A stretch of DNA of 59,235 bases from a virus (IMGVR_UViG_3300017774_004719:1-59235); one strand, 5' to 3'; counted from the stretch's first letter, positions 1 to 25,657 are shown. The notes: generated by a model not told the origin, from the sequence alone. Numbers and translations are program-made.

Positions 1-123
1 CGGCCGCCGGCGGTGCGTTCGCCAGCTCGCAGGCCGGCACGGTTGCCAAGGCCGGCAGCGCGTGGCGCCGGCGCCGCAGCGGCATGGCGGTTTGACGTTC
101 CGGGCATGGCCTGATTCAAGCCC
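1..123. repeat. Terminal overlap, identical to 59113-59235 (circular assembly)
   Basis: The first 123 nt match the last 123 nt, and the overlap lies across the 3' end of the large terminase gene. Confidence 0.95.
96..110 (+). promoter_or_regulatory. Late-module motif CGTTCCGGGCATGGC, copy 1 (same site as 59208-59222)
   Basis: 15-mer directly after the terL stop and upstream of the AAGGAG RBS of the 143 ORF. Confidence 0.75.
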
Positions 124-142
124 CATCGACAAGGAGACTCCC

Positions 143-397
143 ATGGACATGAGTAAGCACAGCTTCTCCGCCGCCCTTGAAATGCTCAAGGATGGCGAGC
201 GAGTTGCCCGGCACGGCTGGAACGGCAAAGGCATGTGGGTTGCGCTCCAGCGTCCCGACGCGCACAGCAAGATGACGATGCCTTATCTGTTCATCGAGTA
301 CCCGGCTGGACATCCTGCCTACCCGCAGGGCTCGCGCGTTCCATGGCTGGCCAGTCAAACCGACCTGCTGGCCGATGACTGGGTGATGGTTTCATGA
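143..397 (+). CDS. DUF2829 / Tad2-like anti-defence sponge protein
   Basis: Signature F..AL..LK.G.RVAR.GWNGKGMW...PYL...VPWLASQTDLLADDW; AAGGAG RBS before ATG 143. Confidence 0.8.
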   Translation: MDMSKHSFSAALEMLKDGERVARHGWNGKGMWVALQRPDAHSKMTMPYLFIEYPAGHPAYPQGSRVPWLASQTDLLADDWVMVS

Positions 398-588
398 GCT
401 ACGCCGTCAAGGCCCTGGAGGATCGCTTCAATCGCCTGACGCGCGAAAGGGAGATCACGCAAGGCGAGGTGGATACCGCCAAAGAAGAACTGACAACCGC
501 CGAGCGGGAGTTGGCCGAGATTGACGCCAACATGCGGGCGGTTCTAGATGCCATTGAAGCGCTGCAGCAGGCAAAGGGCTCCCCATGA
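394..588 (+). CDS. Small coiled-coil hypothetical protein
   Basis: ATGA overlaps with both neighbours; heptad-like sequence. Confidence 0.7.
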   Translation: MSYAVKALEDRFNRLTREREITQGEVDTAKEELTTAERELAEIDANMRAVLDAIEALQQAKGSP

Positions 589-752
589 AGCCCATGACCC
601 TGACCATCTACCAAGCCGCCGACGGCTGGCGCTGGCGGCTGAAGGCCAGCAATGGCCGCATCGTGGCGGATGGCGGCGAGGCCTACCGCACCAAGGCCAA
701 CGCCCGGCGCGCGGTCAAGCGCCTGTTGGCAGCGGTGATCGTGCTGGAGTGA
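585..752 (+). CDS. DUF1508/YegP-like small protein (55 aa, not in ORF track)
   Basis: Hand translation MKPMTLTIYQAADGWRWRLKASNGRIVADGGEAYRTKANARRAVKRL matches the WRWRL.A.NG.I.A..GE.Y pattern. Confidence 0.8.
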   Translation: MKPMTLTIYQAADGWRWRLKASNGRIVADGGEAYRTKANARRAVKRLLAAVIVLE

Positions 753-766
753 GCCCAAGCCCGGGG

Positions 767-781
767 CGTTCCGGGCATGGC
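767..781 (+). promoter_or_regulatory. Late-module motif, copy 2
   Basis: CGTTCCGGGCATGGC in the intergenic gap ahead of the 814 ORF and portal. Confidence 0.75.
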
Positions 782-813
782 AATGTGCCGGCAGTCTCAA
801 AACCGGGGTTGCC

Positions 814-1266
814 ATGGGCGTTTCACTTGATCTGCGCAAGGCGCACCACTCGCGCGTCCACGGCGACATCGTGGCCGTCCAAACCTGGGTTAACGATGAG
901 CGCAGCCTGGTGCTGCTGCCCACGCACCGCAAGGATGCCGGCTGGTACATCCTGGGCGAGTCGGCTGCGTGGAAGTGGAACATCAACGCCATCGACCCGA
1001 CCGAGCGCAATACGGTCCTGACCCACGCCGACAACCAAGCCCGCATCGCTTGCATGATGCTGGGCATCGAGGCGACCCTGCGCAACCGCGCCCGGATCGT
1101 CAACATCATCACCGACACCCTGCCGGACTTGATCCGCATGCCTGCCGCCCCCGAGCAGGAGTTCATTGACGCGGCGTTCGGTGAGATGCGCCTGATGGCC
1201 GATGGCCAAGTCATCAAGGCCGAGGACATCAAGGTGCAGAAGGCCGCGGGCGCCACCTATGGCTGA
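814..1266 (+). CDS. Hypothetical phage protein preceding portal
   Basis: Phage-like codon usage; overlaps the portal start. Confidence 0.75.
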   Translation: MGVSLDLRKAHHSRVHGDIVAVQTWVNDERSLVLLPTHRKDAGWYILGESAAWKWNINAIDPTERNTVLTHADNQARIACMMLGIEATLRNRARIVNIITDTLPDLIRMPAAPEQEFIDAAFGEMRLMADGQVIKAEDIKVQKAAGATYG

Positions 1267-3934
1267 CCCGATCGACTTCAGCCAGGCCAAGGCCGTGCGC
1301 GGCCGAGCCCCCGGCGACCAATACCAAGGCGACATCGAAGGCCCCAACTCCACCGATGTCGTGGAGCTGCGCGCGCACGTCATGGACCAAGCGGCAGCCC
1401 GCAAGCTGCACCGCCAGCTGCTGGAGTGGTACTACATCGAGCGCGAGCGCCAAGCCATGAACCGGCAGGAGATGGCCACCGACGTGGACTTCTACGACAA
1501 CCTGCAGTGGAACAACGACGACGCGGTGGCTGTGCGCGAGCGCGGCCAGATGCCCCTGGTCTACAACGAAGTCGCGCCGATGGTGGACTGGCTGGTGGGC
1601 ACCGAGCGCCGCGCCCGCGTGGACTGGCGCGTGCTGCCCCGCACCGAGGATGACGTGGACATCGCCGACACCAAGACCAAGGTGTTGAAGTACGTGGCCG
1701 ACATCAACCGGACGGTGTTCAACCGCTCCCGGGCTTTCTCGGACACGATCAAGGCCGGCGTGGGCTGGGTGGACGACGGCGTGCGGGATGACCCGACCGA
1801 GGACATCCTGTACTCCAAGTGGGAGGACTGGCGCTGCGTGCTGTGGGACAGCATGAGCAAGGAGCTCGACCTGAGCGACGCGCGCTACCTGTTCCGCTGG
1901 CGCTGGGTGGACGTGGACATCGCCATCGCCATGTTCCCTGACCGTGAGCAGGCCATCCGCCGCGCAGCCGAGGACAACCCGGCTTGGTTCAGCGACGAGG
2001 ATGAGGACGAGTGGCAATCCGCCACCGGCCCGCTGGAGGCCGAGGTCAATGGCCGCCTGTACGCATCGGGCGCTGGCCTGGTGGTGGACGCTCGCCGCCC
2101 GCGGGTGAAGCTGATCGAGGCCCAGTACCGCATGCCGGTCAGGACCAAGGTGGTGGCCGATGGCCCGTTCCGCGGCGTGCCGATGGACGACCGGGACGCC
2201 GTGCTGATGGAAGCCGTGCGCTCTGGCGCCGTCACCAGCATCGTGGACAAGGTGATGATGCGCATGCACGGCGCGGTGTTCACCGAGGGCGCCATGCTCG
2301 CGGCCAGCCCGACGATCTTCCGGCACAACAAGTTCAGCCTCACGCCGATCTGGTGCTACCGCCGCGGGCGGGATCAGATGCCCTACGGGATCATCCGCCG
2401 GGTCCGCGACATCCAGCAGGACTTGAACAAGCGCGCATCGAAAGCGCTGTTCATGCTCAACACCAACCAAGTGGTGATGGACGAGGGCGCCGTCGATGAC
2501 ATCGAGGCCACCCGCGACGAGGTGGACCGCCCGGACGGGGTGATCGTCAAGCGGCAGGGCAAGGCCTTCGAGATCCGGCGCGACACCGATGCGGCATCGG
2601 GCCAGATCAACATGATGACGCTGGCGGCGCAGACGATCCAGAAGGCCGCCGGCGTGGCCGACGAGAACCTGGGCCGCCAGACCAACGCCGTGAGCGGCGA
2701 GGCCATCAAGGCCCGCCAGCTGCAGGGCTCTGTTGTCACCACCGAGCCGCTGGACAACCTGCGCTTTGCCACGCAGCTGCAGGGTGAGAAGCAACTGAGC
2801 CTCACCGAGCAGTTCTACACCGGTGAAAAGGTGATCCGCCTGACCGGCGCCAAGGGTGCCTTGGAGTGGGTGCGCATCAACGAGCCGGAGATGGCCGAGG
2901 ACGGTTCGGTGCGGTTCATCAACGACATCACCGCCAGCCAAGCCGACTTTCAGGTGAGCGAGCAGGACTACAGCGGCACGCTGCGCCAGGTCATGTTTGA
3001 GAACCTGAACCAGATGGCCATGAAGCTGCCGCCCGAGGTGAGCCTGCGCCTGCTGACCATCGCGCTGGAGTTCTCGGACTTGCCCAACAAGGACGAAGTG
3101 GCGGACATGATTCGCCGCATCACCGGCGAGCGCGACCCCAACAAGGAGATGTCGCCCGAGGAAGCCGCCCAGGCCGAGGAGCAGATGCGCCAGCAGGCCG
3201 AGGCGCTGCAGTTCCAACGCGAGCAGGCCATGGCCAGCCTTGAGGAACAGCGCGCCAAGGTGCGCCAGATCAACGCCCAGGCCGCCAAGCTGGAGGCCGA
3301 GGCCCAAGCAGCCTTTGGCGACGATGGTGTGGGCATGCCGCCTGAGGTGGCCCAGGCCTTTGACGAGATGCGTGAGCAGGCCATGCAAGCGCAGAAGCAG
3401 GCCGCCGACGAGATGGACCGCTTGGGCCAGCAGCTGGCCAAGGCACAGAGCGAGCTGGCGAACCGCACGCTGGCGCTGACCAAGGATGCCGACACCAAGC
3501 GCGAGGTGGCCCTGATCGACGCCGACACCCGCGTGCGCGTGGCCGAAATCCAGAAGGCCAGCGACGCCAAGCTGGACCCCATCCTCAAGCGGATGGACGG
3601 CCTGGTGCAGCAGGTGGCCGACGCCAACAAGCGCGCCGACGAGGCCGCAAGCCTGGCGGACAAGAACGCCAAGCTGGCCGAAAAGGCCGCCAAGGACGCA
3701 GCCGAGGCCAAGGCCAAGGCGATGGAGAAGCCCGAGCCGGCGCCTGCGCCAGCTGCAGCACCTGCAGCCGCACCGGCAGCAGCGCCCGCTGGCGACACCA
3801 CGATCCAAGTGAACGTAGGCGGCGAGGAGAAGGAAGTCGTCATCAACCGCGGCGCGGACGGCAAGATCGCCGGCGCGACCGTCAAACCCAAAGCACAGCC
3901 AAAGAAGGCTTCCTCCAGCAACAAGAAGGAGTAA
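1259..3934 (+). CDS. Portal protein with long C-terminal coiled-coil and Pro/Ala extension
   Basis: P22-like portal motifs (D.DFYDNLQW, RGQMPLVYN, RVRDIQQDLNKR.SK, NAVSGEAI.ARQ.QG); position after terminase. Start MADPIDF at 1259. Confidence 0.9.
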   Translation: MADPIDFSQAKAVRGRAPGDQYQGDIEGPNSTDVVELRAHVMDQAAARKLHRQLLEWYYIERERQAMNRQEMATDVDFYDNLQWNNDDAVAVRERGQMPLVYNEVAPMVDWLVGTERRARVDWRVLPRTEDDVDIADTKTKVLKYVADINRTVFNRSRAFSDTIKAGVGWVDDGVRDDPTEDILYSKWEDWRCVLWDSMSKELDLSDARYLFRWRWVDVDIAIAMFPDREQAIRRAAEDNPAWFSDEDEDEWQSATGPLEAEVNGRLYASGAGLVVDARRPRVKLIEAQYRMPVRTKVVADGPFRGVPMDDRDAVLMEAVRSGAVTSIVDKVMMRMHGAVFTEGAMLAASPTIFRHNKFSLTPIWCYRRGRDQMPYGIIRRVRDIQQDLNKRASKALFMLNTNQVVMDEGAVDDIEATRDEVDRPDGVIVKRQGKAFEIRRDTDAASGQINMMTLAAQTIQKAAGVADENLGRQTNAVSGEAIKARQLQGSVVTTEPLDNLRFATQLQGEKQLSLTEQFYTGEKVIRLTGAKGALEWVRINEPEMAEDGSVRFINDITASQADFQVSEQDYSGTLRQVMFENLNQMAMKLPPEVSLRLLTIALEFSDLPNKDEVADMIRRITGERDPNKEMSPEEAAQAEEQMRQQAEALQFQREQAMASLEEQRAKVRQINAQAAKLEAEAQAAFGDDGVGMPPEVAQAFDEMREQAMQAQKQAADEMDRLGQQLAKAQSELANRTLALTKDADTKREVALIDADTRVRVAEIQKASDAKLDPILKRMDGLVQQVADANKRADEAASLADKNAKLAEKAAKDAAEAKAKAMEKPEPAPAPAAAPAAAPAAAPAGDTTIQVNVGGEEKEVVINRGADGKIAGATVKPKAQPKKASSSNKKE

Positions 3935-3940
3935 GCCGAC

Positions 3941-4402
3941 ATGGCCAACATCGTTTTCAACATCGCCAAAGGGCGCGTCACCGAGCTCTATTCGCGGGTC
4001 AAGGGCAACGACCCGGCCAACTCGGCCTTCATCCTTGTGCCCATCGAGACGGCCGGCCTTGAGGCTGATTCGGTGCTGATCGACGCTGACACGCTGACCG
4101 CGCTGCTGGCCGGCACGACCAACGAGCAGACCACCATGGGCCGCAAGGTGCTGACCGATGCCGACTTGGCTGTGGTGCCGGCGCCGGACGACACCAACAA
4201 CTGGTACGAGCTGAGCCTGCCCACCGTGACGTGGGCGCTCGCCACCGGCAACCCCATCTCCAAGATCGCGGTCTGCTACGACGCCGACACCACGGGTGGC
4301 ACGGACGCCAACATCGTGCCGCTGACCATGTTCGACTTCGTGCAGACCCCGAGCGGCGGCGACATCCAGATGACGGGCGGCGCTTTCTACCGGGCAGCCT
4401 GA
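3941..4402 (+). CDS. Putative virion structural protein
   Basis: AAGGAG RBS; beta-rich Thr/Asp/Gly composition; lies in the late region. Confidence 0.65.
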   Translation: MANIVFNIAKGRVTELYSRVKGNDPANSAFILVPIETAGLEADSVLIDADTLTALLAGTTNEQTTMGRKVLTDADLAVVPAPDDTNNWYELSLPTVTWALATGNPISKIAVCYDADTTGGTDANIVPLTMFDFVQTPSGGDIQMTGGAFYRAA

Positions 4403-4404
4403 CC

Positions 4405-4893
4405 ATGATCGAGGTGTCCGGCAACCAAGTCCGCCCGCACATGGTGTTCGCCGTGGCGCGGCGCCGCAACCTGGGCTCGCTCATCACCCGATGGGCCGAC
4501 CCAGGCGCGCGCTGGGGGCACACCGCGTTCTTCGACCAAGAGCGCGGCGTGATGATCGAAGCGCTGCTGTTCAAGGGCGTTGTCGAGACGCCGGTCAAGC
4601 GGTGGGTGGCGCACTACCCGAGCTTCAAGTTCTTCGCGGTGAACGTGCCGCACCCGACGCTGGGCACGCTGTGGCAGCGCATGCAAGTCGGCAAGGGGTA
4701 CGACTACCTGGGCGCCACCTCCGTGCCGCTGCGCGCGTCCTGGCAAAACGACGACCGCTGGTATTGCTCGGAGAAGGAAACGATGAGCGTCATCAAGGCG
4801 GGCCGCAACTGGATCGTTGACCCGCAGCGCGGTGTGCACCCGCACGACTTCTGGCGCTTCGCCAGCGCCGACGCAGAGCACCAGACGGAGTGA
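4405..4893 (+). CDS. Permuted papain-like amidase (YaeF/YiiX, NlpC/P60-related)
   Basis: His before Cys order: WGHTAFF ... MIEA ... GKGYDY ... WYCSE. Confidence 0.75.
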   Translation: MIEVSGNQVRPHMVFAVARRRNLGSLITRWADPGARWGHTAFFDQERGVMIEALLFKGVVETPVKRWVAHYPSFKFFAVNVPHPTLGTLWQRMQVGKGYDYLGATSVPLRASWQNDDRWYCSEKETMSVIKAGRNWIVDPQRGVHPHDFWRFASADAEHQTE

Positions 4894-5339
4894 CCATGAC
4901 ACTCAAGACCGAACTGACCACCGACCCTGCGGGCCTGGGCTACGACCTGGGCGACCACGCGCAGATCGAGGCGCTCATCAACGCCAAGGACCGCAGCCAT
5001 GTGGTGAGCCACTTCGCTTCCGAGCGAGGCATCCTTGATCGCTACCCCGGCGGGCCTGCTGCTGCCGATGCGCTGCTGGTCAAGTTGGAGCAGTTCGCTG
5101 CGTCCGCGAACCCAATGGCCGGCATTGTCAAGCGAGCCCTGAAGTTCCTCGGCACGCCCGAAGGCATCGACCTGGGGAGTAACGGTGTGCAGAGCATGCT
5201 GACCGCGCTGACCCCCTCGCTCCTGACCACGGCCGAGCGCGATGGTCTGCGCTCAATGGCGACCCGAGCTTGCAGCCGTGCCGAGCAGATCGGCATGGGC
5301 TACGTCACCGACACGATGATCCGCGAGGCGCTGGCATGA
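4890..5339 (+). CDS. Hypothetical protein
   Basis: Translationally coupled ORF in the late block; start at 4890 or 4896. Confidence 0.7.
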   Translation: MTMTLKTELTTDPAGLGYDLGDHAQIEALINAKDRSHVVSHFASERGILDRYPGGPAAADALLVKLEQFAASANPMAGIVKRALKFLGTPEGIDLGSNGVQSMLTALTPSLLTTAERDGLRSMATRACSRAEQIGMGYVTDTMIREALA

Positions 5340-5836
5340 CGACGAACTACCGGGCATCAAGCGCCGTTGCCATCACGCTGGCTTCGCTCGCAAGCAGCAG
5401 CGGCCTGACCGTTGGCCGGTGCTCTGCTGCGGTGTCCAACGCCACCAACAAAGACGACTTCGTGCTCCCAGCGCTGCGCACCCGCAGTGGGGGCACCATC
5501 GTTGCTGGTGGTGGCATCGAGCTTTGGGCGTTCGCCCAGCGCGCCGATGGCAACTGGCCGGAGCTTTTCACCGCAGCCTACACGGGCTTGGATGCGGCTT
5601 TCACGGTCAACAACCGTGACGCCCTGCTTGCCGGCGCGGTGCTAGTTGGCAGCGTGGCGCAGACCGACGCAACCGCCCGCGACTATGTGATCCGTGGCCG
5701 TGAGTTGTCCCAGGTGTTTGGTGCGGTGCCTCAGAACTTCGCGTTCTTCGTGACGCACAACATGGGCGTCTCGGCCATCTTGGATGGCACCGCTGGCAAC
5801 CATGTGCTGACCATCAACCCAGGCAACTACACCTGA
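5336..5836 (+). CDS. Hypothetical beta-rich structural protein
   Basis: ATGA overlap with the upstream ORF; begins MTTNYRAS. Confidence 0.7.
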   Translation: MTTNYRASSAVAITLASLASSSGLTVGRCSAAVSNATNKDDFVLPALRTRSGGTIVAGGGIELWAFAQRADGNWPELFTAAYTGLDAAFTVNNRDALLAGAVLVGSVAQTDATARDYVIRGRELSQVFGAVPQNFAFFVTHNMGVSAILDGTAGNHVLTINPGNYT

Positions 5837-5839
5837 GCC

Positions 5840-6964
5840 ATGCCGCGCCGCGTTCATTACCGCGAGCGGGTCGATCAGCCGCAGGGAGCGGTTGGGGCGG
5901 CAGATGTGTTTGGCCTGCGAGTGACGTTCTTGCACACGCCGAGCATGGGCGCCATTGAAACCGGGAGCGGCCTACGCAGGAACGGCGTTCTTGGTGCAGG
6001 CGCATCCATCGAGTCCATGGGCGGCGGCGAAGCGGCGTATCGCTTCACTGGCGGGCAGGCTTCCGGCGCGTGTTCCTTTGGCGTGGCGCGGGCAACCCGC
6101 AGCAGCGGCTCTTTCGTGACCCTGGTTCGGTTTCGATTGAACGTGATGGGTGATGCGAAGCCTTTCTCATGCTGGGGCTCCAACGGCAACTTCCTGACCG
6201 CGACCAGCCCAGCCGGGGAAATCACCACCGCATGCGGTGATGCGGTCAACGGGTCCATCTATGCGCGGGCGACCAGCGGGCTCGGTTTGCAGGCCGGTGT
6301 TGTCTATACCGTCGCCCTTGGCTACGTGGGTGGAAACCCCCCAGCGTTTACCGGAGCGGTCAACGGACGGCCACTCACATTCCCGACGAGCGTGGTGGCG
6401 ATTGGCGATGCCAGCCTGCTTCGAGATTCGGCTGTCAGAACCACCCAAATCGGGATCGCGGATGACGGCAATCCGATGAATGGCTTCGCGTCCATTGCTG
6501 GCGTGCTTATCGGCCGCCACACGCAGGCGATGCTCAACACCATCAGCGCAAATCCTTGGATGGTTGCCGAGCTTGCCCGTCGCAACCTCAACCCCGTCGC
6601 CGCGATCACGGTCTACCGCCCAGGCTCGGACGTTGGTATCTCGGGCTGGACCGCCGTGGGCGCGGCCACGCGCGCCGCAGCCCTGGCCGACGAGAGCGGC
6701 GCCACTTACGCCGAGTCGCCAGACCTGAGCACGCCCGACACGCAGACGTGGATAACGCCGTTCCCCGCTGGGCCGGTGTCCCTTGAAGTCACGGCCGCGC
6801 GCACGGACACCGCTGGAGCGCTGCGCATCGTGTTCCTTGACGCGGGCGGCGCCGCAGTCGGCGCGACCGCTTGGCAGACCCTCACCGGCACGCCGACCGA
6901 CTACACGCTGACCGCCACGGTGTCGGCCGTGTCTCCCCAATTTCGCATCGAGGTTCAACCATGA
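5840..6964 (+). CDS. Possible ConA/LamG-like fibre or receptor-binding protein
   Basis: Beta-sandwich pattern (SFVTLVRF...YTVALGY...AVNG...QIG) ending in the I.ANPW motif often seen after such domains; central part has shifted codon usage. Confidence 0.5.
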   Translation: MPRRVHYRERVDQPQGAVGAADVFGLRVTFLHTPSMGAIETGSGLRRNGVLGAGASIESMGGGEAAYRFTGGQASGACSFGVARATRSSGSFVTLVRFRLNVMGDAKPFSCWGSNGNFLTATSPAGEITTACGDAVNGSIYARATSGLGLQAGVVYTVALGYVGGNPPAFTGAVNGRPLTFPTSVVAIGDASLLRDSAVRTTQIGIADDGNPMNGFASIAGVLIGRHTQAMLNTISANPWMVAELARRNLNPVAAITVYRPGSDVGISGWTAVGAATRAAALADESGATYAESPDLSTPDTQTWITPFPAGPVSLEVTAARTDTAGALRIVFLDAGGAAVGATAWQTLTGTPTDYTLTATVSAVSPQFRIEVQP

Positions 6965-8574
6965 CTTACGGAACCACCGAGTTCAACCCAGGTACTGGCG
7001 GCGACAGGCTGCTGAACGACGCCCTCGGCACCGTGGACGGCGCGGCTGCGCCGCTGAACGCCAAGGTGCAGGCTTCCAAGCTGGTCTACGGGGCATCGGG
7101 CGAGGCGATCAGCGTCACCGAAACCAGGGGCCTGCCGGTGGCGAACGTGTCCCCGACCTTCTGGCGCGTGGGCTTTGCCGAGTCGGGGTCCGGCCTGCAA
7201 GGTTTGGCCGCTGCCGAGATGACACTGGTGCAGACGGGCGCCGGCATGGCCGTTTCACAGTCGGGCGGGAACTTGGTCATCACCACCGGCACCACGGCAA
7301 ACAGCGAAACCGTGCTGCGGTCCAACCTGACATTCCGGGGCGCGCTGCTGGCGCGCTACAAGGCCATCCTGTCGCAGCGGATCGTCAACCAGACGTTCCG
7401 GTTTGAACTGGCCGACCTGATCGGCACCGGGCTGTCGTACACCATCAACAGCGCCACCAGCGTCACGGTAACCTTCCCCACGACCAACCCATTCACGGCG
7501 GCCAACGTGGGGCAGTTCTTGCGCCTTTCGGTCATCACGGGCGCGGCGGGCATCCCTGGGCGCTACGCCATCGCCTCAGTCTCGGGTCTGACCGTGACCT
7601 TCACGGTCGCAGCGTGGCCAGCCACCGGCACCGGCACGCTGACCCTGTACGGCCACAACTGGCTCGCCAACGAGTACAGCGGCACCACCGTGACCAACAG
7701 CAGCTTCGACTGCCAGCGGCGCGGCTGGAACAGTGGCAACACCACGGCGACGATTAGCACCACGGCGTCCCCCGGCCATGTCGCGCAAATTGCGTTCGAT
7801 GTGATGGCCGCGTCACTTGCCGACGCCCTGGTGGCGTCCAATGCGGGCTATCAGTGGTCCAACCGGGCCAGCCGCATCGAGAACGTCCCCGACGAGGATG
7901 TGAACCTGCATTTCTTTTTGGTTGTGCAAAACGGCTCCACCGCGCCGGCCAGCACCACCACCCTGACTGTGGGGTTCATGCAGGTCGAAGATCAGCCGCG
8001 CCAGAAGGTGCGCACCGCCTCGGCTGACCCCGTTGGTTCGCACCCGCAGCCCGTGCAGGTCATGAACCCGGTTGGCACTGTCGGCATTACCGGCTACCCG
8101 ACCGCTGCGGCTTTGGCGGATGCCCTCGCCAACCCGACCGTGACGCAGATGGCCATGCTGGGCATGCTGTGGAACAACGCCACTTGGGACCGCACGCGCG
8201 GCAACACCGCCCTCAGCGTTGAGGCGTCCAGCGCCAAGACCACCACCGGCCAAGGTGCGACGCAGACCAACCACAACGCACGCGGGGTGCAACTGGTGGT
8301 CAATGTCAGCGCGGCCACCGGCACCAGCCCGACCCTGGTGGTGCGTGCGCAGGTGCAAGACCCCGTGAGCAGCAACTGGGTGGACATTCCTGGCGCAGCC
8401 ACCGCGTCGATCACCGGCACCGGCCAAACCCTGCTGACGATTTACCCCGGCGCGAACCCGGTGGCCAACGCTGTTGTGAGCCAGCCGCTGGGCCGCAACT
8501 TCCGGTTGGCGTGGACGATTGGCGGAACCACGCCATCGTTCACCTTCAGCGTCGGCGCGCTGTTCATCCTCTAA
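6961..8574 (+). CDS. Thr/Ser/Gly-rich virion structural protein
   Basis: 537-aa beta-rich ORF coupled by ATGA overlap. Confidence 0.65.
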   Translation: MTYGTTEFNPGTGGDRLLNDALGTVDGAAAPLNAKVQASKLVYGASGEAISVTETRGLPVANVSPTFWRVGFAESGSGLQGLAAAEMTLVQTGAGMAVSQSGGNLVITTGTTANSETVLRSNLTFRGALLARYKAILSQRIVNQTFRFELADLIGTGLSYTINSATSVTVTFPTTNPFTAANVGQFLRLSVITGAAGIPGRYAIASVSGLTVTFTVAAWPATGTGTLTLYGHNWLANEYSGTTVTNSSFDCQRRGWNSGNTTATISTTASPGHVAQIAFDVMAASLADALVASNAGYQWSNRASRIENVPDEDVNLHFFLVVQNGSTAPASTTTLTVGFMQVEDQPRQKVRTASADPVGSHPQPVQVMNPVGTVGITGYPTAAALADALANPTVTQMAMLGMLWNNATWDRTRGNTALSVEASSAKTTTGQGATQTNHNARGVQLVVNVSAATGTSPTLVVRAQVQDPVSSNWVDIPGAATASITGTGQTLLTIYPGANPVANAVVSQPLGRNFRLAWTIGGTTPSFTFSVGALFIL

Positions 8575-8577
8575 GCC

Positions 8578-9723
8578 ATGTTCTTCTGGCGGCTCGGCCT
8601 CGAAAAGTCTGGCAAGGTCCGGGTCTACCGGCTCAGTGCCACGGTAGGGACTGGCGCTGCCATCGGCGATGTTGGGCTGGCAATTGAGGCCGACACCGCA
8701 CTGGCTCTGGCCGGCGTTCAGATCCGCGCTGCGGGCCTTGCGACCGAGGCAGATGCCGCCCTGGCACTTGCAGTGGTTGCGCGCCGCGCCGCAGGCCTGG
8801 CAGTCGAGGCCGACACCGCGCTGGCCCTGGCGTCAGGGGCTGGCGCCGCCGTTGGGCTGGCCACAGAGAGTTCGACCGCCCTGGCGCTTGGGGCGGTTGT
8901 CCGCAAGGCCGTCGGCTTGGCGACCGAGGCGGACACGGCGTTCGCTCGCGCGGGCATCGCCGTTCGGGCTGCAGGCCTTGCCACTGAAACCGACGCAGCC
9001 TTCGCGCCGGCCTCTGCAGGCGGCGCGGCTGTCGGCCTGGCGGTTGAGACTGATGCTGCGCTGGCTTTGGCTGGCCGGCAGGCCAAGGCAGTGGGGGTTG
9101 CCACCGAAGCCGACACGGCCCTGGCGCTGGGCTCCGGCGCCAACGCGCAAGTGGGCCTGTCGGTGGAGGCGGACACCTCGCTGTCCTTGGTTGGCCTGCA
9201 GCGCAAGGGCCTGGGACTTGCCGCCGAAACCTCCACCGCGCTGGCGCTGGAGCCGCTGGGCCTTGGCGCCCCTGGTGTGGCCGAGGAGGTGGACGAGGCG
9301 CTGGCGCTGTCGAGTCGCTTGGTCAAGGCGGTGGGGCTCGCCACCGAATCCGAGCAGGCGCTGGCGCTGGGCGCCATCACGATCCGGGTGGCCGGGCTCG
9401 CCATCGAGTCGGGCATTGCCATCGCACGCGGCGCTGTCGGGGTTCGCCCTGTCGGCCGCGCCAGCGAGGTGGACACCGCGTTTGCCCTGGCCCCGGTGGG
9501 CGCTGGCGCGACGCCTGAGGAGCTGTGGGCGCACGTCCTTTCCAACGGCATGACGGCCGGCGACACCCTGGCCGAGACGCACGCCATGCTCATGGACCTG
9601 GCGCGCACCCATGGCCTGGTGCTGGGTGAGGATCTGACCGTGACCCCGACCCTGCGCACGGCCGGCGCCGTGATCCAGGCGCTGGCCACCGCCGCCAACA
9701 CCGTGACCGTGACGAGGCAGTAA
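8578..9723 (+). CDS. Repeat protein with 14 copies of a 20-aa unit (AVGLATEADTALAL)
   Basis: Visible 60-bp periodicity from about 8668 to 9495; C-terminal domain is paralogous to the next ORF. Confidence 0.8.
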   Translation: MFFWRLGLEKSGKVRVYRLSATVGTGAAIGDVGLAIEADTALALAGVQIRAAGLATEADAALALAVVARRAAGLAVEADTALALASGAGAAVGLATESSTALALGAVVRKAVGLATEADTAFARAGIAVRAAGLATETDAAFAPASAGGAAVGLAVETDAALALAGRQAKAVGVATEADTALALGSGANAQVGLSVEADTSLSLVGLQRKGLGLAAETSTALALEPLGLGAPGVAEEVDEALALSSRLVKAVGLATESEQALALGAITIRVAGLAIESGIAIARGAVGVRPVGRASEVDTAFALAPVGAGATPEELWAHVLSNGMTAGDTLAETHAMLMDLARTHGLVLGEDLTVTPTLRTAGAVIQALATAANTVTVTRQ

Positions 9724-9944
9724 TGGCAACGCCCACCGAGTTCTGGAACCATGTGCCCACCGGTTTGGGCATGCCTGCAGGCGACGCCCTGGTGGAGTTG
9801 CATGAGCGGGTGGCAGAGCTGCACCTGATCCATGGCCTGACCACCGGCCAGCCGCTGACCGTGACCCCAACGAGTCGGCAGGCCGGCCCAGTGCTGCAGG
9901 CCATCGCCACAGCCGGCGAGACGGTGACGGTGAGCCGTGCTTGA
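9723..9944 (+). CDS. Small protein paralogous to the C-terminus of 8578-9723
   Basis: ATP.E.W.HV...GM.AGD.L.E.H...L...HGL..G..LTVTPT.R.AG.V.QA.ATA..TVTV.R is shared. Confidence 0.8.
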   Translation: MATPTEFWNHVPTGLGMPAGDALVELHERVAELHLIHGLTTGQPLTVTPTSRQAGPVLQAIATAGETVTVSRA

Positions 9945-10362
9945 TCCGCTTCGCATAGCGCTGCAGGGCCTGGGCTTTCCGCTCACGCCCATCGCCATCG
10001 CTGTTCAAGGCCTGATTGAGCAGATCCAAGAAGAGGCACGCGACGACGACACGATTGGTGGCGGCCGCGGGCGACCCGGGCGCCTGGCGTGGCTGTTCGG
10101 CGCACCGGCTGTGCGCACCCGGCAGCAGCCCGGCAAGGTGGGCGCCGATGTCACCGAGGCCGAGGTTCGTGCGCAGTGGGAGCTGCTGGAGGCGCGGCAG
10201 GCCGCCCAGGCCAAGCCGCCCGCGGCCAAGGCCGAAGTGCCGCAACCCCTTGCGCAACCCCTTGCGCCGCCCATCACCGCGCAGCGCGCCGAACCCGATC
10301 TAGTGGCCGCGTTGGAGGCCGACGACGACGAAGCCCTGGCGCTGATCCTGGCGCAGCTGTGA
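9937..10362 (+). CDS. Hypothetical protein with acidic DDDEALALIL tail
   Basis: Overlaps the upstream stop; ends just before motif copy 3. Confidence 0.65.
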   Translation: MLDPLRIALQGLGFPLTPIAIAVQGLIEQIQEEARDDDTIGGGRGRPGRLAWLFGAPAVRTRQQPGKVGADVTEAEVRAQWELLEARQAAQAKPPAAKAEVPQPLAQPLAPPITAQRAEPDLVAALEADDDEALALILAQL

Positions 10363-10363
10363 T

Positions 10364-10378
10364 CGTTCCGGGCATGGC
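10364..10378 (+). promoter_or_regulatory. Late-module motif, copy 3
   Basis: CGTTCCGGGCATGGC between the 9937 stop and the scaffold gene. Confidence 0.75.
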
Positions 10379-10432
10379 ACTGTGGTGACTTCAGCCCTTG
10401 GGTTTCCCATCCTTCTACCTGCGGAGTCGCGC

Positions 10433-11431
10433 ATGAGTGCAGACCAAACCAGCAACCCCAGCCAAGACTTGGCCGATGGCCTTGCCACCTTGACCGATGA
10501 AGAGCGCGCTGCGCTGACCGAGGACGTTGACGACCTCAAGCGCGATGACAGCGCCATCGAAGATGACGACGATGACGACGGCAAGGCGGACGACGCGCCC
10601 GCCGACGAAGCCGAGCCGGACGATCTGCCGGCGGACAAGCCCGCAAAGCCCGCGGTGCAGGACGAAGCCGCTGACGAAGCGGCCGAGCCCAGCGCTGATC
10701 CCGCTGCGGCCCAGGCCGACGACACCCCCGACCCCGACGCACGCAAGGTGCGCGTGCCCGCCTTTGAGGCGCAGCTGCCTGCCGACTTTGAGGAGCGCAA
10801 GACGGCGCTGCAGACCCGCGAGGACGAGGCCGAGCAGAAGTACGAGGACGGCGAGATTGACCGCGCCACGCTGCGCGCCACGCTGCGCGAAGTGGCAGCC
10901 GAGCGCGAAACCCTGGTGCGCATCCAGACCAAGGTGGAGCTCGCCCAGGAGATGGCCGAGCAGGAGGCAAGCCGCGAGTTGCGCAGCGCCGTGAACAAGG
11001 TGATGGAGCAGGGCAAGGCCGACGGCATCGACTACAACAAGGACGAGCACTGGGGCGAGCTCAAGGCCTTCGTCACTGTGGTGGAGGCGCGCAACCCCAC
11101 CAAGTCGGTGGATTGGGTGATGAGGGAAGCGCACCGCCGCGTGCTGCTGGCCAACGACATCGAGCCGGCCGCCGGCAGCAAGACCAACGCGCCGGCACCC
11201 AAGCCTGCAGCCAAGGCTGACCCCAAGGCCGAGGCGATTGCCCGCCGCAAGCCTGACGCCAGCAAGGCCCAGCCCACGCTGGCCCAGGTGCCAGGCGGCG
11301 ACGGCCCGGGCGATGTGGGTAGCGAGTTTGCTGACATCGACGCGCTGGACGGCGACAAGTACGAGGCGGCCCTTGAGCGACTGCGCAAGTCGAACCCCGC
11401 GGCCTACGAAAAGTACATGGCCGAAGCCTGA
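10433..11431 (+). CDS. Capsid scaffolding protein
   Basis: Acidic N-terminus, central coiled coil, C-terminal PTLAQVPG...EFADID.L; lies upstream of the capsid gene. Confidence 0.75.
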   Translation: MSADQTSNPSQDLADGLATLTDEERAALTEDVDDLKRDDSAIEDDDDDDGKADDAPADEAEPDDLPADKPAKPAVQDEAADEAAEPSADPAAAQADDTPDPDARKVRVPAFEAQLPADFEERKTALQTREDEAEQKYEDGEIDRATLRATLREVAAERETLVRIQTKVELAQEMAEQEASRELRSAVNKVMEQGKADGIDYNKDEHWGELKAFVTVVEARNPTKSVDWVMREAHRRVLLANDIEPAAGSKTNAPAPKPAAKADPKAEAIARRKPDASKAQPTLAQVPGGDGPGDVGSEFADIDALDGDKYEAALERLRKSNPAAYEKYMAEA

Positions 11432-11637
11432 TGGACACCGCGCGCTCTCAAATGATCGTTGACCTGCAGCCCGGCGAGGGCGTGCGGGTTGGCGATGTGG
11501 TGGTGGAGCTGGTGCACAAGAGCGGGCGCGCGGCGCGCCTGCGCTTGTCAGCCCCGCGAGAAACGCGGATTGACCGACGGCCGCTGCAAGCCGAAGCCGA
11601 ACCCGTTCCGGGCATGGCTCAATATCAACCAGGCTGA
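11431..11637 (+). CDS. Small CsrA/RsmA-fold-like protein
   Basis: MIVDLQPGEGVRVGDVVVELVHKSGRAARLRLSAPRETRIDR aligns by eye with CsrA (L.R..GE.L.IGD.V.V.VL...G.QVRIG..AP..V.V.R). Confidence 0.55.
   Translation: MDTARSQMIVDLQPGEGVRVGDVVVELVHKSGRAARLRLSAPRETRIDRRPLQAEAEPVPGMAQYQPG
11604..11618 (+). promoter_or_regulatory. Late-module motif, copy 4
   Basis: CGTTCCGGGCATGGC inside the 3' end of the 11431 ORF, about 80 nt before the capsid ATG. Confidence 0.75.
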
Positions 11638-11697
11638 AAACGACAGCCGTTCCGAGCGCAGGAGTGCTCTTTCAACTCACATTGAAGGAGTCTCCAC

Positions 11698-13345: not shown

Positions 13346-13374
13346 CGCATCGCAGGCGGCAACGCCTTGTGACC

Positions 13375-13409
13375 AAGGGGTGGTGTGGCCAACGCGCCAC
13401 CCCTTTTTT
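13375..13409 (+). terminator. Rho-independent terminator
   Basis: AAGGGGTGGTGTG-gccaa-CGCGCCACCCCTT followed by a T run. Confidence 0.85.
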
Positions 13410-13432
13410 GTTCCTTTCACCTGGGGCCAGCC

Positions 13433-13786: not shown

Positions 13787-13797
13787 TTGGTTGAGCC

Positions 13798-14418: not shown

Positions 14419-14419
14419 C

Positions 14420-15381: not shown

Positions 15382-15617
15382 AGCTGCTGGACGACTGGAC
15401 CGTGATCTTGCGCCGCGCCTGGAGCGTGCGCTTGGCCCTGCTGTCTGCCGTGCTGGGCGCCGTGGAAATCGGCGTGCAGTTCCTGGCCGCGAGCCAACCA
15501 ACCCCGTACTTCGCCATCGCTTCCGCGCTGACCAGTTTGGCGGCAGCCATTGCCCGGATCGTGGCCCAACCGAAGGCGTTCCAGCATGAACAAGCCGATC
15601 CCGACCGCGCCGAGTAA
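15378..15617 (+). CDS. Holin
   Basis: MKLLDDW..ILRRAWSVRL, two TM segments, ARIVAQ; upstream of the lysozyme. Confidence 0.75.
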   Translation: MKLLDDWTVILRRAWSVRLALLSAVLGAVEIGVQFLAASQPTPYFAIASALTSLAAAIARIVAQPKAFQHEQADPDRAE

Positions 15618-16107
15618 GTTTGGTGCCAGCCCCAAGGGCAAGCTCGCCGCCGCAGCCGTGGCGCTGATGACGGCCGGGCTTGCGGGCCATGAGGGCGTGC
15701 GCATGGTGGCCTACGCCGACCCCATCGGCATTCCCACCATCTGCCTGGGCCAGACCAAGGGCGTGAAGCTGGGGCAGACCGCCACGCTGGAGCAGTGCTT
15801 GGCCTGGGCCGGCAAGGACGCCATGCGTGCGGTGGAAATCGTGCTGGACTGCAACCCCAACACCGAGTTCACCCCGCACCAGCTCGCCGCCTTTGCGGAC
15901 ATCGCCTACAACGTCGGCCCCCGGCCGGTGTGCGACCGCAAGAACAGCACCATGGCCCGGCTGCTGGAGCAGAACCGCGCGCTCGATGCCTGCTACGAGT
16001 TCCCCAAGTGGAACAAGGCCCGCTTGGCGGGTGTGCTGACCCCGTTCCCTGGCCTGACCAAGCGCCGCGAGGCCAACAAGGCGCAGTGCCTGACGGGGGT
16101 TGTATGA
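15586..16107 (+). CDS. GH24 lysozyme, probably SAR-type endolysin
   Basis: Ala-rich N-terminal anchor, then the E-8x-D-5x-T triad (HEGVRMVAYADPIGIPTIC), YNVG, GLTKRR. Confidence 0.9.
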   Translation: MNKPIPTAPSKFGASPKGKLAAAAVALMTAGLAGHEGVRMVAYADPIGIPTICLGQTKGVKLGQTATLEQCLAWAGKDAMRAVEIVLDCNPNTEFTPHQLAAFADIAYNVGPRPVCDRKNSTMARLLEQNRALDACYEFPKWNKARLAGVLTPFPGLTKRREANKAQCLTGVV

Positions 16108-20696: not shown

Positions 20697-20699
20697 TCC

Positions 20700-22422: not shown

Positions 22423-22425
22423 CGG

Positions 22426-22440
22426 CGATCCGGGCATGGC
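22426..22440 (+). promoter_or_regulatory. Late-module motif, copy 5 (CGATCCGGGCATGGC)
   Basis: One-mismatch copy followed by AATGTGCC as in copy 2; 11 nt before the cupin ATG. Confidence 0.75.
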
Positions 22441-22451
22441 AATGTGCCCGC

Positions 22452-22862: not shown

Positions 22863-23394
22863 GCGCATCTGCCTGCTGGACTCCGGCCTTCAGGTGGCGC
22901 CGATTTACTGGGCGCTGCAGCAGCACCCGGAGTTGTGGAACCAGCACACCACCCGCACCGCCAACCCTGACAGCCCGCACCACGGGCTTGACGACATTTG
23001 GGCGCGGTTTGGCGACCCGGCCCGCGCCGAGGACGGTGGCGCGCATGACTCGTTTTGGTATCCAGCCGCCGACGTGCTGGGCATCAAGCCCATGTGCCTT
23101 GACCTGATGCGCGCCGTTCAAGGCGTGGAGCTGGGCGGCGTGCTCATCACCCGCATTCCACCAGGCGCCGAGTGCAAGCCGCACACAGATCCGGGCTGGC
23201 ACGCGCGCCGCTACGACAAGTTCGCGGTGCAGATCACCAGCGCACCCGGCCAGCGATTTCACTTTGATGGCGAGAGCCTTGAAACCAAGCCGGGCGATCT
23301 GTTTTGGTTCGACAACCAATTCACCCATTGGGTCACGAATCCGACCGCTTACGAGCGCGTGACCATGATCGTTTGCATTCGCAAGGAGGACTGA
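22855..23394 (+). CDS. Aspartyl/asparaginyl beta-hydroxylase-like 2OG-Fe(II) oxygenase
   Basis: ITRIPPG..CKPHTD (HxD) ... PGDLFWFDN..THWVTN....RVTMIV. Confidence 0.8.
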   Translation: MGERICLLDSGLQVAPIYWALQQHPELWNQHTTRTANPDSPHHGLDDIWARFGDPARAEDGGAHDSFWYPAADVLGIKPMCLDLMRAVQGVELGGVLITRIPPGAECKPHTDPGWHARRYDKFAVQITSAPGQRFHFDGESLETKPGDLFWFDNQFTHWVTNPTAYERVTMIVCIRKED

Positions 23395-23395
23395 A

Positions 23396-24310
23396 ATGCC
23401 CTGGGCCGCAGCAGCAACAGTAGTGAGCGCCGGTATCGGTGCATCGTCATCCCGCAAGGCACGCAAGGCAGCCAGCGCGCAGGCCAATGCCGCCAACGCG
23501 CAGGCCGAGCAGGCTGCACGCCTGGGCCGTGAGCAGTTCGATTGGTACAAGGGCGAGTACGAGCGCACCCGCCCCCAGCGCGAGCAAGAGGCATCGCGCG
23601 CAAGCCAGATCGCTGATGCCCAGTTTTCAAGCATGCTGCGGGCCAACCGGCGCGCCGACGAGTTGGACAGCCGGAACAAACTGGTCTACCAACCGCTTGA
23701 GGACCGCATCATTTCCGATGCGCAGAACTTCGACACCGAAGCAAAGCGCGAAGAGCTGGCCGGGCAGGCGATGGCCGGGACGCAGCAGGCTTTCGACAAC
23801 GCGCAGGGCCAGCAGATGCGCGGCCTGGTGGCCAGCGGCGTGAACCCCAACAGCGGCGCGGCGCTGGCCCTTCGCCAGCAGGGCACCTTGCAAAAGGCCC
23901 TGGGCTTGGCGGCTGCGGGCAACCAGGCGCGCACGCAGGCGCGAGCCGAGGGGTATGCCCGCAAGATGGACGCCAGCCGATTCGGGCAGAGCAACGTCGG
24001 CCAACAGGCCGGGATGATGAGCCTGTCCAGCGGCATGGGCACCTCGGCTGTTGGCTCCGGCATGGCTGGCCTGAACGCCACGTACTCCGGCTCCAACTTG
24101 ATGGGGCAGGGGTTTGGCGCGGCCATGCAGGGCATGGGGATGGGCAACCAATCTCGCCAGCTGGGCGGGCAGTTCCAGAACGCCGCGAATGAATGGCAGA
24201 GCCAGCAGGATGACGCGATCGGCTCCATGCTGGGCGGCGTTGGAACGGCGACCAAGAAAGGCGTTGACCTTTGGAACAGCCTTGGCCGTGCCGCCGGCGG
24301 CGGCGTATAA
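23396..24310 (+). CDS. Internal virion / DNA pilot (ejection) protein
   Basis: AAGGAGG RBS; Ala/Gly/Gln-rich; GVNPNSG motif. Confidence 0.65.
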   Translation: MPWAAAATVVSAGIGASSSRKARKAASAQANAANAQAEQAARLGREQFDWYKGEYERTRPQREQEASRASQIADAQFSSMLRANRRADELDSRNKLVYQPLEDRIISDAQNFDTEAKREELAGQAMAGTQQAFDNAQGQQMRGLVASGVNPNSGAALALRQQGTLQKALGLAAAGNQARTQARAEGYARKMDASRFGQSNVGQQAGMMSLSSGMGTSAVGSGMAGLNATYSGSNLMGQGFGAAMQGMGMGNQSRQLGGQFQNAANEWQSQQDDAIGSMLGGVGTATKKGVDLWNSLGRAAGGGV

Positions 24311-24320
24311 GGAGTAAGGC

Positions 24321-25640
24321 ATGAGCACCGGACCCGTTCGATCAATGTTCGCCACCATGGACCTGCTGCGCAAGCATGACAACGCAGGCTTTGAGGACGA
24401 CAAAGCGCGCTGGGATGACGAGCAGGCCCGCAAGAAAGCCAAGTGGGCGGACGAGGATCGCGCCTCGACCGTGAAGGAGCGCGCCCGCCAGGAAGAGCAG
24501 CGAACGGGCTTGATCGACGCGATGAAGGACGTGGATGTTGAAGATATCGACATCGCCACGCCCACAGCCGACCCGAGCACGCAGACCCTTTCCCGTGCGT
24601 TCAAGGTGGGCGGCAAGCAGTACAACACCCGGGCCGAAGCCGATGCGGCGCGCGAGCTCCACAACTCGACCGGCGCCAAGATGCAGCGGGCGGCCAACTT
24701 CACGCTCAAAAGCGGAAACCCCACGGGCGCGGCCACGATTTCCGAGACGGGCATGAAATGGGACAAGGCCATGCGCGACGACGTGAAGCGCAGGTTTGAG
24801 GACGACCTTTCCAAGAACGTGAAGCTGGGCGACTGGCAAGGGCTGGAGAGCTTCGTCAACAACAGCCCCATCTCACCGACCAAGGCGCGGTTCGTTCTTG
24901 GCCCGGATGGCAAGCAGCAGGCCATTGGCGAGGATGGCCAGCCCATCCCGGGCATGGCGTTCCCCAACACGCCCGAAGGCCACGCCACTGCGAGCAAGCT
25001 GCTGTTTGGGCAGCTGACGCCCGAGCAGCAGCTGGCCCACATTTACGGGCGGCAGAAGGCGGCAGCCGACGCCGAACAGCTGCGGGTCAAGAACGCCCAG
25101 GAGGAGCGGAAGGTCAGGGCCGACGAGCGACGGGTGCAGATCGCCGGCAATGCCGATGCACGCGCACAGGGTGAGTACGACGCCGGCGCCAGTGGCCGAA
25201 CCTTGGCGATGCAGATGGACAAGCTGCGCCTGGATGCAGCGAGCGACGACCCGGCGGTTGCAAACCGGGCCAAGGCCAAGCTGGTGGAGGCCGCGGCCAT
25301 CAGCGCGCTGGGCAAAAGCAAGCCCGCCGGCCAGTACAAGATCGAGATGAACGAGGTGGCCACCGCCCTGGGCAAGCCCAGCGGCAGGCCCGACCCGTTC
25401 ACCGGCCGCGAAACCGTGAACCGCGACATGGCGGAAGAGGCGCGGTTCTTTGAGTGGATGCAGGCCAACAACATGACCGACACCAACGAGGCCCTGGCCA
25501 AGTGGAAAGCCGGCGCGGGCAGGGCAGCGGCGCCATCTGGCGACTTGGTGCAGCAGGCGCGCGAAGCCGTGGCCCGGGGCGCCGACAAGGCCAAGGTGAA
25601 CGAGCGTTTGAAGGCCCAAGGACTCCCGCCACTCCCTTGA
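24321..25640 (+). CDS. Internal virion (ejection) protein
   Basis: AAGGAG RBS; helical; lies between the pilot and giant genes. Confidence 0.6.
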   Translation: MSTGPVRSMFATMDLLRKHDNAGFEDDKARWDDEQARKKAKWADEDRASTVKERARQEEQRTGLIDAMKDVDVEDIDIATPTADPSTQTLSRAFKVGGKQYNTRAEADAARELHNSTGAKMQRAANFTLKSGNPTGAATISETGMKWDKAMRDDVKRRFEDDLSKNVKLGDWQGLESFVNNSPISPTKARFVLGPDGKQQAIGEDGQPIPGMAFPNTPEGHATASKLLFGQLTPEQQLAHIYGRQKAAADAEQLRVKNAQEERKVRADERRVQIAGNADARAQGEYDAGASGRTLAMQMDKLRLDAASDDPAVANRAKAKLVEAAAISALGKSKPAGQYKIEMNEVATALGKPSGRPDPFTGRETVNRDMAEEARFFEWMQANNMTDTNEALAKWKAGAGRAAAPSGDLVQQAREAVARGADKAKVNERLKAQGLPPLP

Positions 25641-25642
25641 TC

Positions 25643-25657
25643 CGATCCGGGCATGGC
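25643..25657 (+). promoter_or_regulatory. Late-module motif, copy 6 (CGATCCGGGCATGGC)
   Basis: Intergenic, upstream of the AGGAG RBS of the giant gene. Confidence 0.75.

Follow-up and report, generated by a model that had tools for sequence, protein, structure and literature searches.

A repeated 20-bp element with features of a phage-specific late promoter, and a plausible winged-helix activator, in a clade of Burkholderiales podophages

Motif copies in the late region

The window analyzed here is the whole 59,235-nt stretch IMGVR_UViG_3300017774_004719, a complete IMG/VR virus annotated with "direct terminal repeats". Its late region contains a repeated 15-bp motif, CGWTCCGGGCATGGC, and this motif, its relatives in other phages and its possible reader are the subject of this study. 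Genes were mapped by third-position GC content together with Pfam and PHROG searches. The late region lies on the + strand and runs from terS (57002) to TerL, a Tad2-like gene, an open reading frame (ORF) that starts at 814 and encodes 150 amino acids (aa) ahead of the portal gene (1202..3934), a 6-kb block, a gene in scaffold position, a CsrA-like gene, the capsid, adaptor, lysozyme and tail genes, and finally the genes for a 982-aa protein and a 3902-aa polyvalent protein (end 40358). The early genes occupy 40.4-57 kb.

The exact motif has seven matches in the window, at 96, 767, 10364, 11604, 22426, 25643 and 59208, all of them on the + strand, with none expected (0 in 100 shuffles). Because the terminal 123 bp of the record are repeated (1-123 are identical to 59113-59235), the match at 59208..59222 is the same as that at 96, leaving six distinct copies in a 59,112-bp unit. 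The original prediction had listed exactly these six + strand copies, without the duplicate. When up to three mismatches are allowed, 26 matches are found in the window against 9.7 expected. The sole site with two mismatches (24944) lies inside an ORF (24321..25640), lacks the downstream T described below and was excluded from the count.

The upstream stop codon is 0-14 nt away from the copies, and the next ATG 11-79 nt. Copy 1 (96..115) follows the TerL stop at 0 nt and precedes ATG 143 of the Tad2-like gene (Pfam PF11195, E 2.6e-22) by 32 nt. Copy 2 (767..786) begins 14 nt past the stop of ORF 585..752 and is 32 nt before ATG 814. Copy 3 (10364..10383) is 1 nt past a stop and 54 nt before ATG 10433, the start of the scaffold-position gene, which matches phrog_8246. 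Copy 4 (11604..11623) is located inside the tail of the CsrA-like ORF (11431..11637), 79 nt before the capsid ATG at 11698. Copy 5 (22426..22445), 3 nt past a stop, is followed after 11 nt by ATG 22452, which opens an ORF with a weak cupin match and has no Shine-Dalgarno sequence. Copy 6 (25643..25662) is 2 nt past a stop and 31 nt before ATG 25689 of the 982-aa protein gene. The gene positions thus bear out the claims that five copies are intergenic, just after a stop codon, with one in the tail of the pre-capsid ORF, and that the copies head the Tad2-like, portal, scaffold, capsid, cupin and giant-protein modules, the ORF at 814 standing before the portal gene and the 982-aa protein gene before that of the giant protein. 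No distinct copy was found between 25.7 and 59.2 kb, as had also been claimed for the early and replication regions. The A/T-richer patch that had been described after the motif is better replaced by a single invariant T, five bases past the terminal GGC, which is present in 6 of 6 window copies (at 115 in copy 1) and in 77 of 77 instances of the wider family, although the weight matrix that chose these instances includes the T column.

A family of related elements and its anatomy

No close relative was found by megablast among GenBank phages. The nearest cultured capsids, at ~48% identity, are those of Bcep22/DC1, the Ralstonia Gervaise/GP4 group and Erwinia PEp14. We compared 80 of the 125 capsid relatives in IMG/VR. 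The exact motif is missing from 79 of these 80 loci, the exception being a near-identical 4-kb fragment (L084), and on this sequence comparison it is private to this phage. Exact-motif scans of IMG/VR gave mostly single chance matches; three promising contigs of ~59 kb had one copy each. Repeated 11-mers built on the same plan are nevertheless found in many relatives, each with its own, and a loose version of the family pattern fits 38 of 64 distinct capsid-upstream regions at ~90 nt 5' of the capsid ATG.

A weight matrix was then built with 12 whole relatives, whose capsids are 74-80% identical to that of the window. In the window and these relatives it yields 88 hits, 4-11 per genome, against a single hit in a reversed-sequence control. 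The hits are strongly oriented: 81 of the 88 lie on the strand of the capsid and other structural genes, the four best-scoring hits on the opposite strand (in G008 and G009) precede genes of that strand, and 71 of 90 instances are intergenic by a crude ORF caller. Both the strand bias and the bias towards intergenic positions are what the original prediction had implied. Positions also recur among the relatives: 9 of the 12 have a copy 28-35 nt ahead of the 814-like gene, the copy nearest the capsid gene is 63-96 nt before it, and another lies ~30-33 nt before the giant-protein module. The family consensus reads CGTG[G/C]CAAGCATGGCA-NNN-T, with the lineage variants CGTGCCAAGGATGGCA, CG[A/T]GGCAAGCGTGGCA, CCACCAAGCATGGCA, CGTGCCTAGTATGGCA and CGTGACAAGCACGGCA; CGTTCCGGGC, found in the window, and CGTGCCAAGG are boxes of different lineages. 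In nine loci (L255, L261, L275, L278, L280, L286, L293, L296 and L298) tandem copies ~21-34 nt apart, 22 in most, were observed 5' of the capsid gene.

In four lysogen genomes (4.3-5.8 Mb), 27 of 28 matches fall in prophage contigs or regions, with none in the control, and the motif is therefore not part of a host regulon. Among the matches listed, the literature on the motif string consists of unrelated primer or gene contexts. In the articles covered by searches on the Bcep22 group, on promoters of Gervaisevirus/Lessievirus and on leaderless late promoters, no description of the motif was found, nor one of late-gene control or promoters in these phages.

The anatomy of the element was counted over the 77 family instances. 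TGGC (positions 12-15) and the position-20 T vary little or not at all, A16 is found in 69 of 77, and the differences between lineages fall in positions 1-11. No conservation is seen 5' of the box. If the invariant T is placed at -7, every one of the 77 instances, and each of the 6 window copies, has a TG at -15/-14, as in an extended -10 promoter. Set against the hexamer TAnnnT, all 77 instances have the T at -7, 69 have the A at -11 (only 3 of 6 copies in the window), and all 77 have C, not T, at -12. The invariant half, TGGCAnnnT, resembles an extended -10 element in sequence, and a conserved phage-specific element, found ahead of several late operons and in the lysogens almost confined to prophages, would take the place of a -35.

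The distance to the start codon is informative as well. In 11 instances from 10 genomes, representing at least four unrelated gene families, there is no Shine-Dalgarno sequence and the A of the ATG lies 7-11 nt past the invariant T; the 11 downstream ORFs have third-position GC of 0.77-0.91. This geometry fits leaderless mRNA started at the motif. In the window, the A of ATG 22452 is exactly 7 nt past T22445, and a leaderless mRNA is predicted for the copy 5 gene on this spacing.

A further line of evidence comes from the position of the element before the capsid gene. In Bcep22 the sequence TTGTAA-N17-TATAGAAT and in Gervaise TTGCAA-N17-TAATAAAAT precede the capsid ATG by ~90 nt and are followed by the leader hairpin found here too, and L322/G021 have TTGATT-N17-TATGGT at the same capsid-upstream site. 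Judged by these hexamers and their spacing, the orthologous position in distant relatives is that of a sigma70-type promoter. One lineage with a capsid ~78% identical (L254, L310 and L317) has CGCGCCTAGCCTCGTAACGT at the motif position, with a left half like the variant of L410 and a right half that makes a better TAnnnT hexamer (TAACGT). This type may be intermediate in sequence between the motif type and ordinary promoters.

These results suggest that each of the six copies is the core of a phage-specific late promoter, which would fire rightward into the late modules, and we consider it probable that the copies are promoters. Such a promoter would have no -35 element and would consist of two adjoining halves. 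The first, at about -27 to -16, would be a lineage-specific box (CGTTCCGGGC here, CGTG[G/C]CAAGC in most relatives), presumably read by a phage-encoded factor. The second, (A)TGGC(A)-NNN-T, would act as a weak extended -10 (TG, A and T at -15/-14, -11 and -7, respectively), read by the host sigma70 RNA polymerase. Transcription would start ~7 nt past the invariant T, which places the predicted starts near 122, 793, 10390, 11630, 22452 and 25669; that near 11630 would lie just before the structured capsid leader. Since a stop-to-motif distance of 0-14 nt provides no terminator room, the promoters would add to read-through rather than head insulated units. The likeliest factor is a 116-aa winged-helix protein encoded in the early rightward operon (51710..52060), in which case a simple cascade would operate, an early protein turning on the late genes. 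The idea of distributed late promoters with a phage activator, as first proposed, gains support from the co-oriented motif family, the -10-like half, the leaderless geometry, the orthologous sigma70-type promoters and the confinement to prophages. Taken as a whole, and weighted towards the promoter claim, we regard this explanation as somewhat more probable than not.

The candidate reader and competing explanations

We then sought the factor that could read the box. Neither a sigma factor nor an RNA polymerase or Q was recognized by Pfam in 60 ORF translations or by PHROG in 20, in agreement with the original prediction. A promoter for a single-subunit phage RNA polymerase (T7-like or N4-like) was set aside, as none of the 60 ORFs has an RNA polymerase domain, although ORFs without a match could still encode one. 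Control of the lambda Q type was also rejected: there is no match to a Q family, NinG lies directly before terS, and the six copies are spread over 26 kb.

Searching 66 window genes against the 12 whole relatives with tblastn, we observed that the early region is almost wholly mosaic. The exception is 51710..52060 on the + strand, the gene of the 116-aa winged helix-turn-helix (wHTH) protein, which is the only early gene kept in 12 of 12 of these motif-bearing relatives (31-45% identity). Every other gene between 40.4 and 57.0 kb is found in at most 8 of 12, including a neighboring ribbon-helix-helix gene (8 of 12). The wHTH is favored as the reader because it is the sole survivor of this mosaicism. 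Among the candidates named earlier, the ORF at 51710 stands out; 51981..52361 recurs in 2 of 12 relatives and 53626..54522 in 1 of 12. The ORF at 814, also proposed, occurs in 12 of 12 relatives but is present in the motif-less Bcep22 and Gervaise too, and is itself a recurrent target of the motif.

For the wHTH, searches of Bcep22 (bases 1-52539), Gervaise and 50,697 GenBank phage records gave no homologue. Capsid relatives without the motif have the wHTH in 0 of 5 contigs, all of which are 24-62% complete, with only G021 spanning the early region; in G021 neither the wHTH gene nor the motif is present. Starting from the wHTH, 50 viral loci were found, of which 37 have same-strand downstream copies of the motif, one has reverse-strand copies only and 12 have none. 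Same-strand downstream copies also accompany 12 of 17 prophage wHTH loci.

The family comprises 443 cluster representatives with no annotation. The wHTH has no Pfam or PHROG match, a profile search of the PDB gives only ArsR at E 0.062, and a word-index protein search gave just three close homologues, none functionally named (one "hypothetical protein"). An AlphaFold2 (AF2) model shows a helix at the N-terminus, then a conserved linker rich in proline and then a winged helix (three helices and a beta wing) predicted with confidence, with pLDDT >90 over residues 46-107. Foldseek relates the model to MepR, MarR/MexR and ArsR at E 2.4e-4 to 2.4e-3, with a query TM-score of ~0.5. The most conserved part is a disordered N-terminal motif, RFNPRPPGVIR.

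Several observations weigh against this picture. On the side of the promoter, the -10 is imperfect, since the C at -12 is universal, the A at -11 is present in only half of the window copies and the NNN is G+C-rich. In five public RNA runs just 5-7% of the sampled words were recovered, and these as contigs, which cannot show 5' ends. The failure to find a sigma factor or RNA polymerase gene applies to Pfam and PHROG, and many ORFs match neither. On the side of the wHTH, MarR/ArsR-type proteins are usually repressors, and the position of the gene near the start of the early operon gives no built-in delay. Eight of the 12 wHTH loci without a motif have <6 kb of downstream sequence, and the other four have 7-10 kb. 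The distance between motif variants tracks that of the capsid (Spearman r 0.68-0.70, p ~0.002) and of the scaffold (r 0.73, p 0.001). The corresponding correlation with the whole wHTH is not significant in Mantel tests (r 0.27-0.29, p 0.11-0.13), nor is that with its recognition helix and wing (r 0.25, p 0.16) or with the wHTH given the capsid in a partial Mantel test (r 0.17, p 0.22). The suggestion that an ORF would be found to co-vary with the motif was therefore not borne out for the wHTH. Comparing its residues with motif positions, we found that unusual boxes each come with their own protein clade, with no clean residue-to-base rule. Moreover, 9 of the 10 longer wHTH contigs share the capsid type, and because the wHTH, the motif and the capsid lineage form one clade, co-occurrence cannot separate function from descent. 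We put the chance that the wHTH is the reader of the box, as its conservation suggests, slightly below even.

It is conceivable, though unlikely, that the promoters are real and the wHTH is either a repressor, with the box as an overlapping operator, or unrelated to them, the reader being another phage protein such as a sigma-like or polymerase-modifying one. The MarR/ArsR-like fold, typical of a repressor, the lack of a wHTH signal in the covariation and the many ORFs with no Pfam or PHROG match would fit this, and the 16-mer shows a partial palindrome, TGCCA-N4-TGGCA, in about half of the instances. However, the lineage changes are asymmetric, affecting the left half only, unlike what a symmetric dimer operator would give. 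An activator-less promoter that has CAnnnT at -10 and no -35 should also be very weak. Furthermore, no other early gene is kept in all 12 relatives, so that, with any other reader, phages with a common box would have to use non-homologous proteins.

A less likely explanation still is that the motif acts in RNA, as a site of processing or of protein binding (by the CsrA-like protein of the phage, for example) on a long late transcript, whose cleavage shortly after the motif would yield leaderless or short-leader mRNAs. The sense-strand copies do lie in intergenic spacers that have no terminator room, the CsrA-like gene is conserved beside the capsid gene, and cleavage could equally explain an ATG 7-11 nt downstream. 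In some lineages the box reads CCAAGGAUGGCA, which we take to resemble CsrA sites, with GGA in a hairpin loop; most lineages, on the other hand, have GCA rather than GGA. The 5-bp stem is complete in only 18 of the 77 instances and its central pair is present in 38, the window copies fold no better than shuffled sequence, and no Rfam family matches. The invariant half is compatible with a -10 at the right distance from the leaderless ATGs, and distant relatives have DNA promoters at the same place. An RNA processing or translational element, which had been offered as the alternative at the outset, is accordingly disfavored by the poor folding and the lack of an Rfam match.

That a host factor (an alternative sigma such as sigma54, or a regulator of the host) reads the motif, with no need for a phage protein, seems very improbable. 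No phage sigma factor was found, and TGGCA resembles the sigma54 -24 element and GGCA the -12 element. The spacing between GG and GC is nevertheless 2 bp short of the consensus TGGCAC-N5-TTGC, and about half of the instances lack the left GG (40 of 77 have GCC as their left element, and the window has TCC). The prophage location of 27 of the 28 lysogen matches leaves no host regulon, and the box varies between phage lineages. By inspection against consensus sequences, sigma54, extracytoplasmic function (ECF) and sigma28 readings were ruled out on spacing and missing elements.

Finally, CII-like sites that drive leftward antisense transcription into the preceding late genes when lysogeny is established are hardly credible: the wHTH gene lies 3' of a cro-like gene, roughly in the place of lambda cII, and the bottom strand of the box is a direct repeat, TGCC-N5-TGCC, which to us is reminiscent of the lambda CII site TTGC-N6-TTGC, yet no copy precedes the integrase or repressor-side genes, conservation runs downstream to the invariant T rather than upstream, the distances to downstream starts are fixed, and relatives have sense-strand sigma70-type promoters at the same site.

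Neighboring genes, known systems and implications

The capsid leader downstream of copy 4 has structures of its own. The CsrA-like gene (11431..11637, +) directly 5' of the capsid gene matches the PHROG "CsrA-like regulator" family phrog_8397 at E 1.1e-13 and Pfam CsrA at 22.1 bits, under the cut-off of 27. A CsrA-like gene is also found 5' of the capsid gene in Bcep22 and Gervaise (L324 19711-20000; L325 7014-7724). The leader (11632..11690, +) contains a stem-loop (11632-11648), a hairpin with an A(G/T)GA loop (GAGCGC-AGGA-GTGCTC at 11654-11669) and a GGA-containing Shine-Dalgarno sequence (11684-11690). The A(G/T)GA-loop hairpin is present in 59 of 64 distinct capsid leaders of relatives, 37-55 nt before the ATG. 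From this arrangement the capsid gene looks to be under CsrA-type two-site translational control, rather than the CsrA-like gene being a "moron". It is as a "moron" that the gene is treated in the JC1 paper (PMC9144972), in which a term search does not find the word "promoter". The stem-loop at 11632-11648 and its counterparts in relatives are of the type GGCTGAAAAGCC or CGGCTGAGCAAGCCG, resemble the boxB hairpins of lambda and P22, and would sit at the extreme 5' end of the predicted capsid transcript. The short leader of the 814-like gene (787-813 and relatives) contains a hairpin conserved as CCCCAG...CTGGGG or CCGG...CCGGGG. As the sole G-run resembling a Shine-Dalgarno sequence is the 3' arm of this hairpin, the ribosome site of this gene may be masked.

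Several other genes in the late region are worth describing. The Tad2-like (anti-Thoeris) gene (143-397) stands just 3' of TerL with its own motif copy, and no homologue is found at that place in any of the 12 relatives. Between the portal and scaffold-position genes, a block of ~6.4 kb (3941-10362) contains nine ORFs with no Pfam match. Most of them lack a detectable homologue among the 12 relatives, with three matched in G018 and one in G009. One of the nine ORFs (8578..9723) has six tandem 120-nt repeats. This block may be an accessory or anti-defense island. A phage lysozyme gene (15550-16107; Pfam E 1.2e-25) is embedded in the structural module, and no holin or spanin cassette was recognized next to terS, where NinG lies directly 5'. 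The two large genes at 25689-40358 encode the 982-aa protein, with FtsK-gamma and ddrB-ParB domains, and the 3902-aa protein, with helicase, methyltransferase, RadC/JAB and ART-PolyVal domains, which is DarB-like, as is gp75 of Bcep22.

In the early region, a YdaS/Cro-like ORF (51105-51344; Pfam E 2.2e-7) overlaps the 5' end of a minus-strand ORF (50438-51169) that we take to be the repressor; it has no Pfam match and probably starts at an internal codon. The "cI/cro switch" of the original prediction is thus a loose label, its cro-like member being of the YdaS family and its putative repressor having no family match. A strict sigma70 consensus scan of 50.0-59.2 kb gave no site, and the early promoters were not located.

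Comparison with known late-gene systems indicates both shared logic and clear differences. Late promoters of phage P1 have no -35 element, and a conserved element adjoins their -10. P1 late genes are reported to have specific promoter sequences that need Lpa, an RNA polymerase-binding factor (PMC8198154). As proposed here, P1 has many scattered late operons, each headed by a special promoter that needs a phage factor; the box, however, has a sequence unrelated to that of P1, the candidate factor is a winged-helix protein from a family without annotation, the -10-like half (CAnnnT) is rich in G+C, and the hosts are Burkholderiales. Small phage activators whose upstream element replaces the -35 are also known elsewhere, in the T4 MotA box with a sigma70 -10, P2 Ogr, Mu C and phi29 p4. 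The logic would be the same, a host sigma70 -10 joined to a phage-specific upstream element. The box described here, however, abuts the -10-like half (~-27 to -16) instead of being centered near -30, -55 or -82, there is no sequence or family relation to these activators, and no AsiA-like co-factor is known here. RinA of staphylococcal phages is a small DNA-binding protein that is needed for the late operon to be transcribed and that is reported to act at one promoter 5' of terS (PMC3152322). On that account it is, like the candidate here, a small phage-encoded DNA-binding late activator, but the present phage has at least six copies through the late region with none before terS, and the protein families are unrelated. 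With the lambda Q/qut and N/nut systems the phage shares a temperate lifestyle, a cro-like early operon, a NinG gene and the boxB-like stem-loop in the capsid leader; it differs in having no detected Q or N homologue, six sites instead of one late promoter, and a motif that is not a hairpin. The podophages of the Bcep22/Lessievirus and Gervaisevirus groups have the 814-like gene before the portal gene, the CsrA-like gene before the capsid gene and the giant DarB-like protein, as here, but they have sigma70-type capsid-upstream promoters, no motif family and no wHTH homologue.

Taken together, the comparisons support a clade-wide phage-specific late-promoter code, read from sequence conservation and placement, with a plausible but unproven winged-helix activator. 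A bolder joint reading of the same comparisons is possible, though it should be held with some doubt: the wHTH family would be a new class of phage late activators, a co-inherited 20-bp code made of a specificity box and a G+C-rich extended -10 would have replaced sigma70 promoters throughout the late region in one Burkholderiales podophage clade, some late mRNAs would be leaderless, and the N-terminal RFNPRPPGVIR motif would contact RNA polymerase.

If the proposed explanation is true, it would account for the late-gene switch in a large uncultured group related to the Bcep22 and Gervaise phages, assign a function to an unannotated protein family and mean that leaderless late mRNAs occur in a phage of the Proteobacteria. 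Among the lysogens are several strains in culture (Hydrogenophaga intermedia S1, Mitsuaria chitosanitabida, Roseateles chitinivorans and Quisquiliibacterium transsilvanicum), and therefore the leaderless-mRNA prediction is directly testable. The 20-bp element and the 116-aa protein would also form a compact, portable promoter-activator pair for high-GC Burkholderiales, which would be silent in the host background because nearly all of the lysogen sites are prophage-borne.

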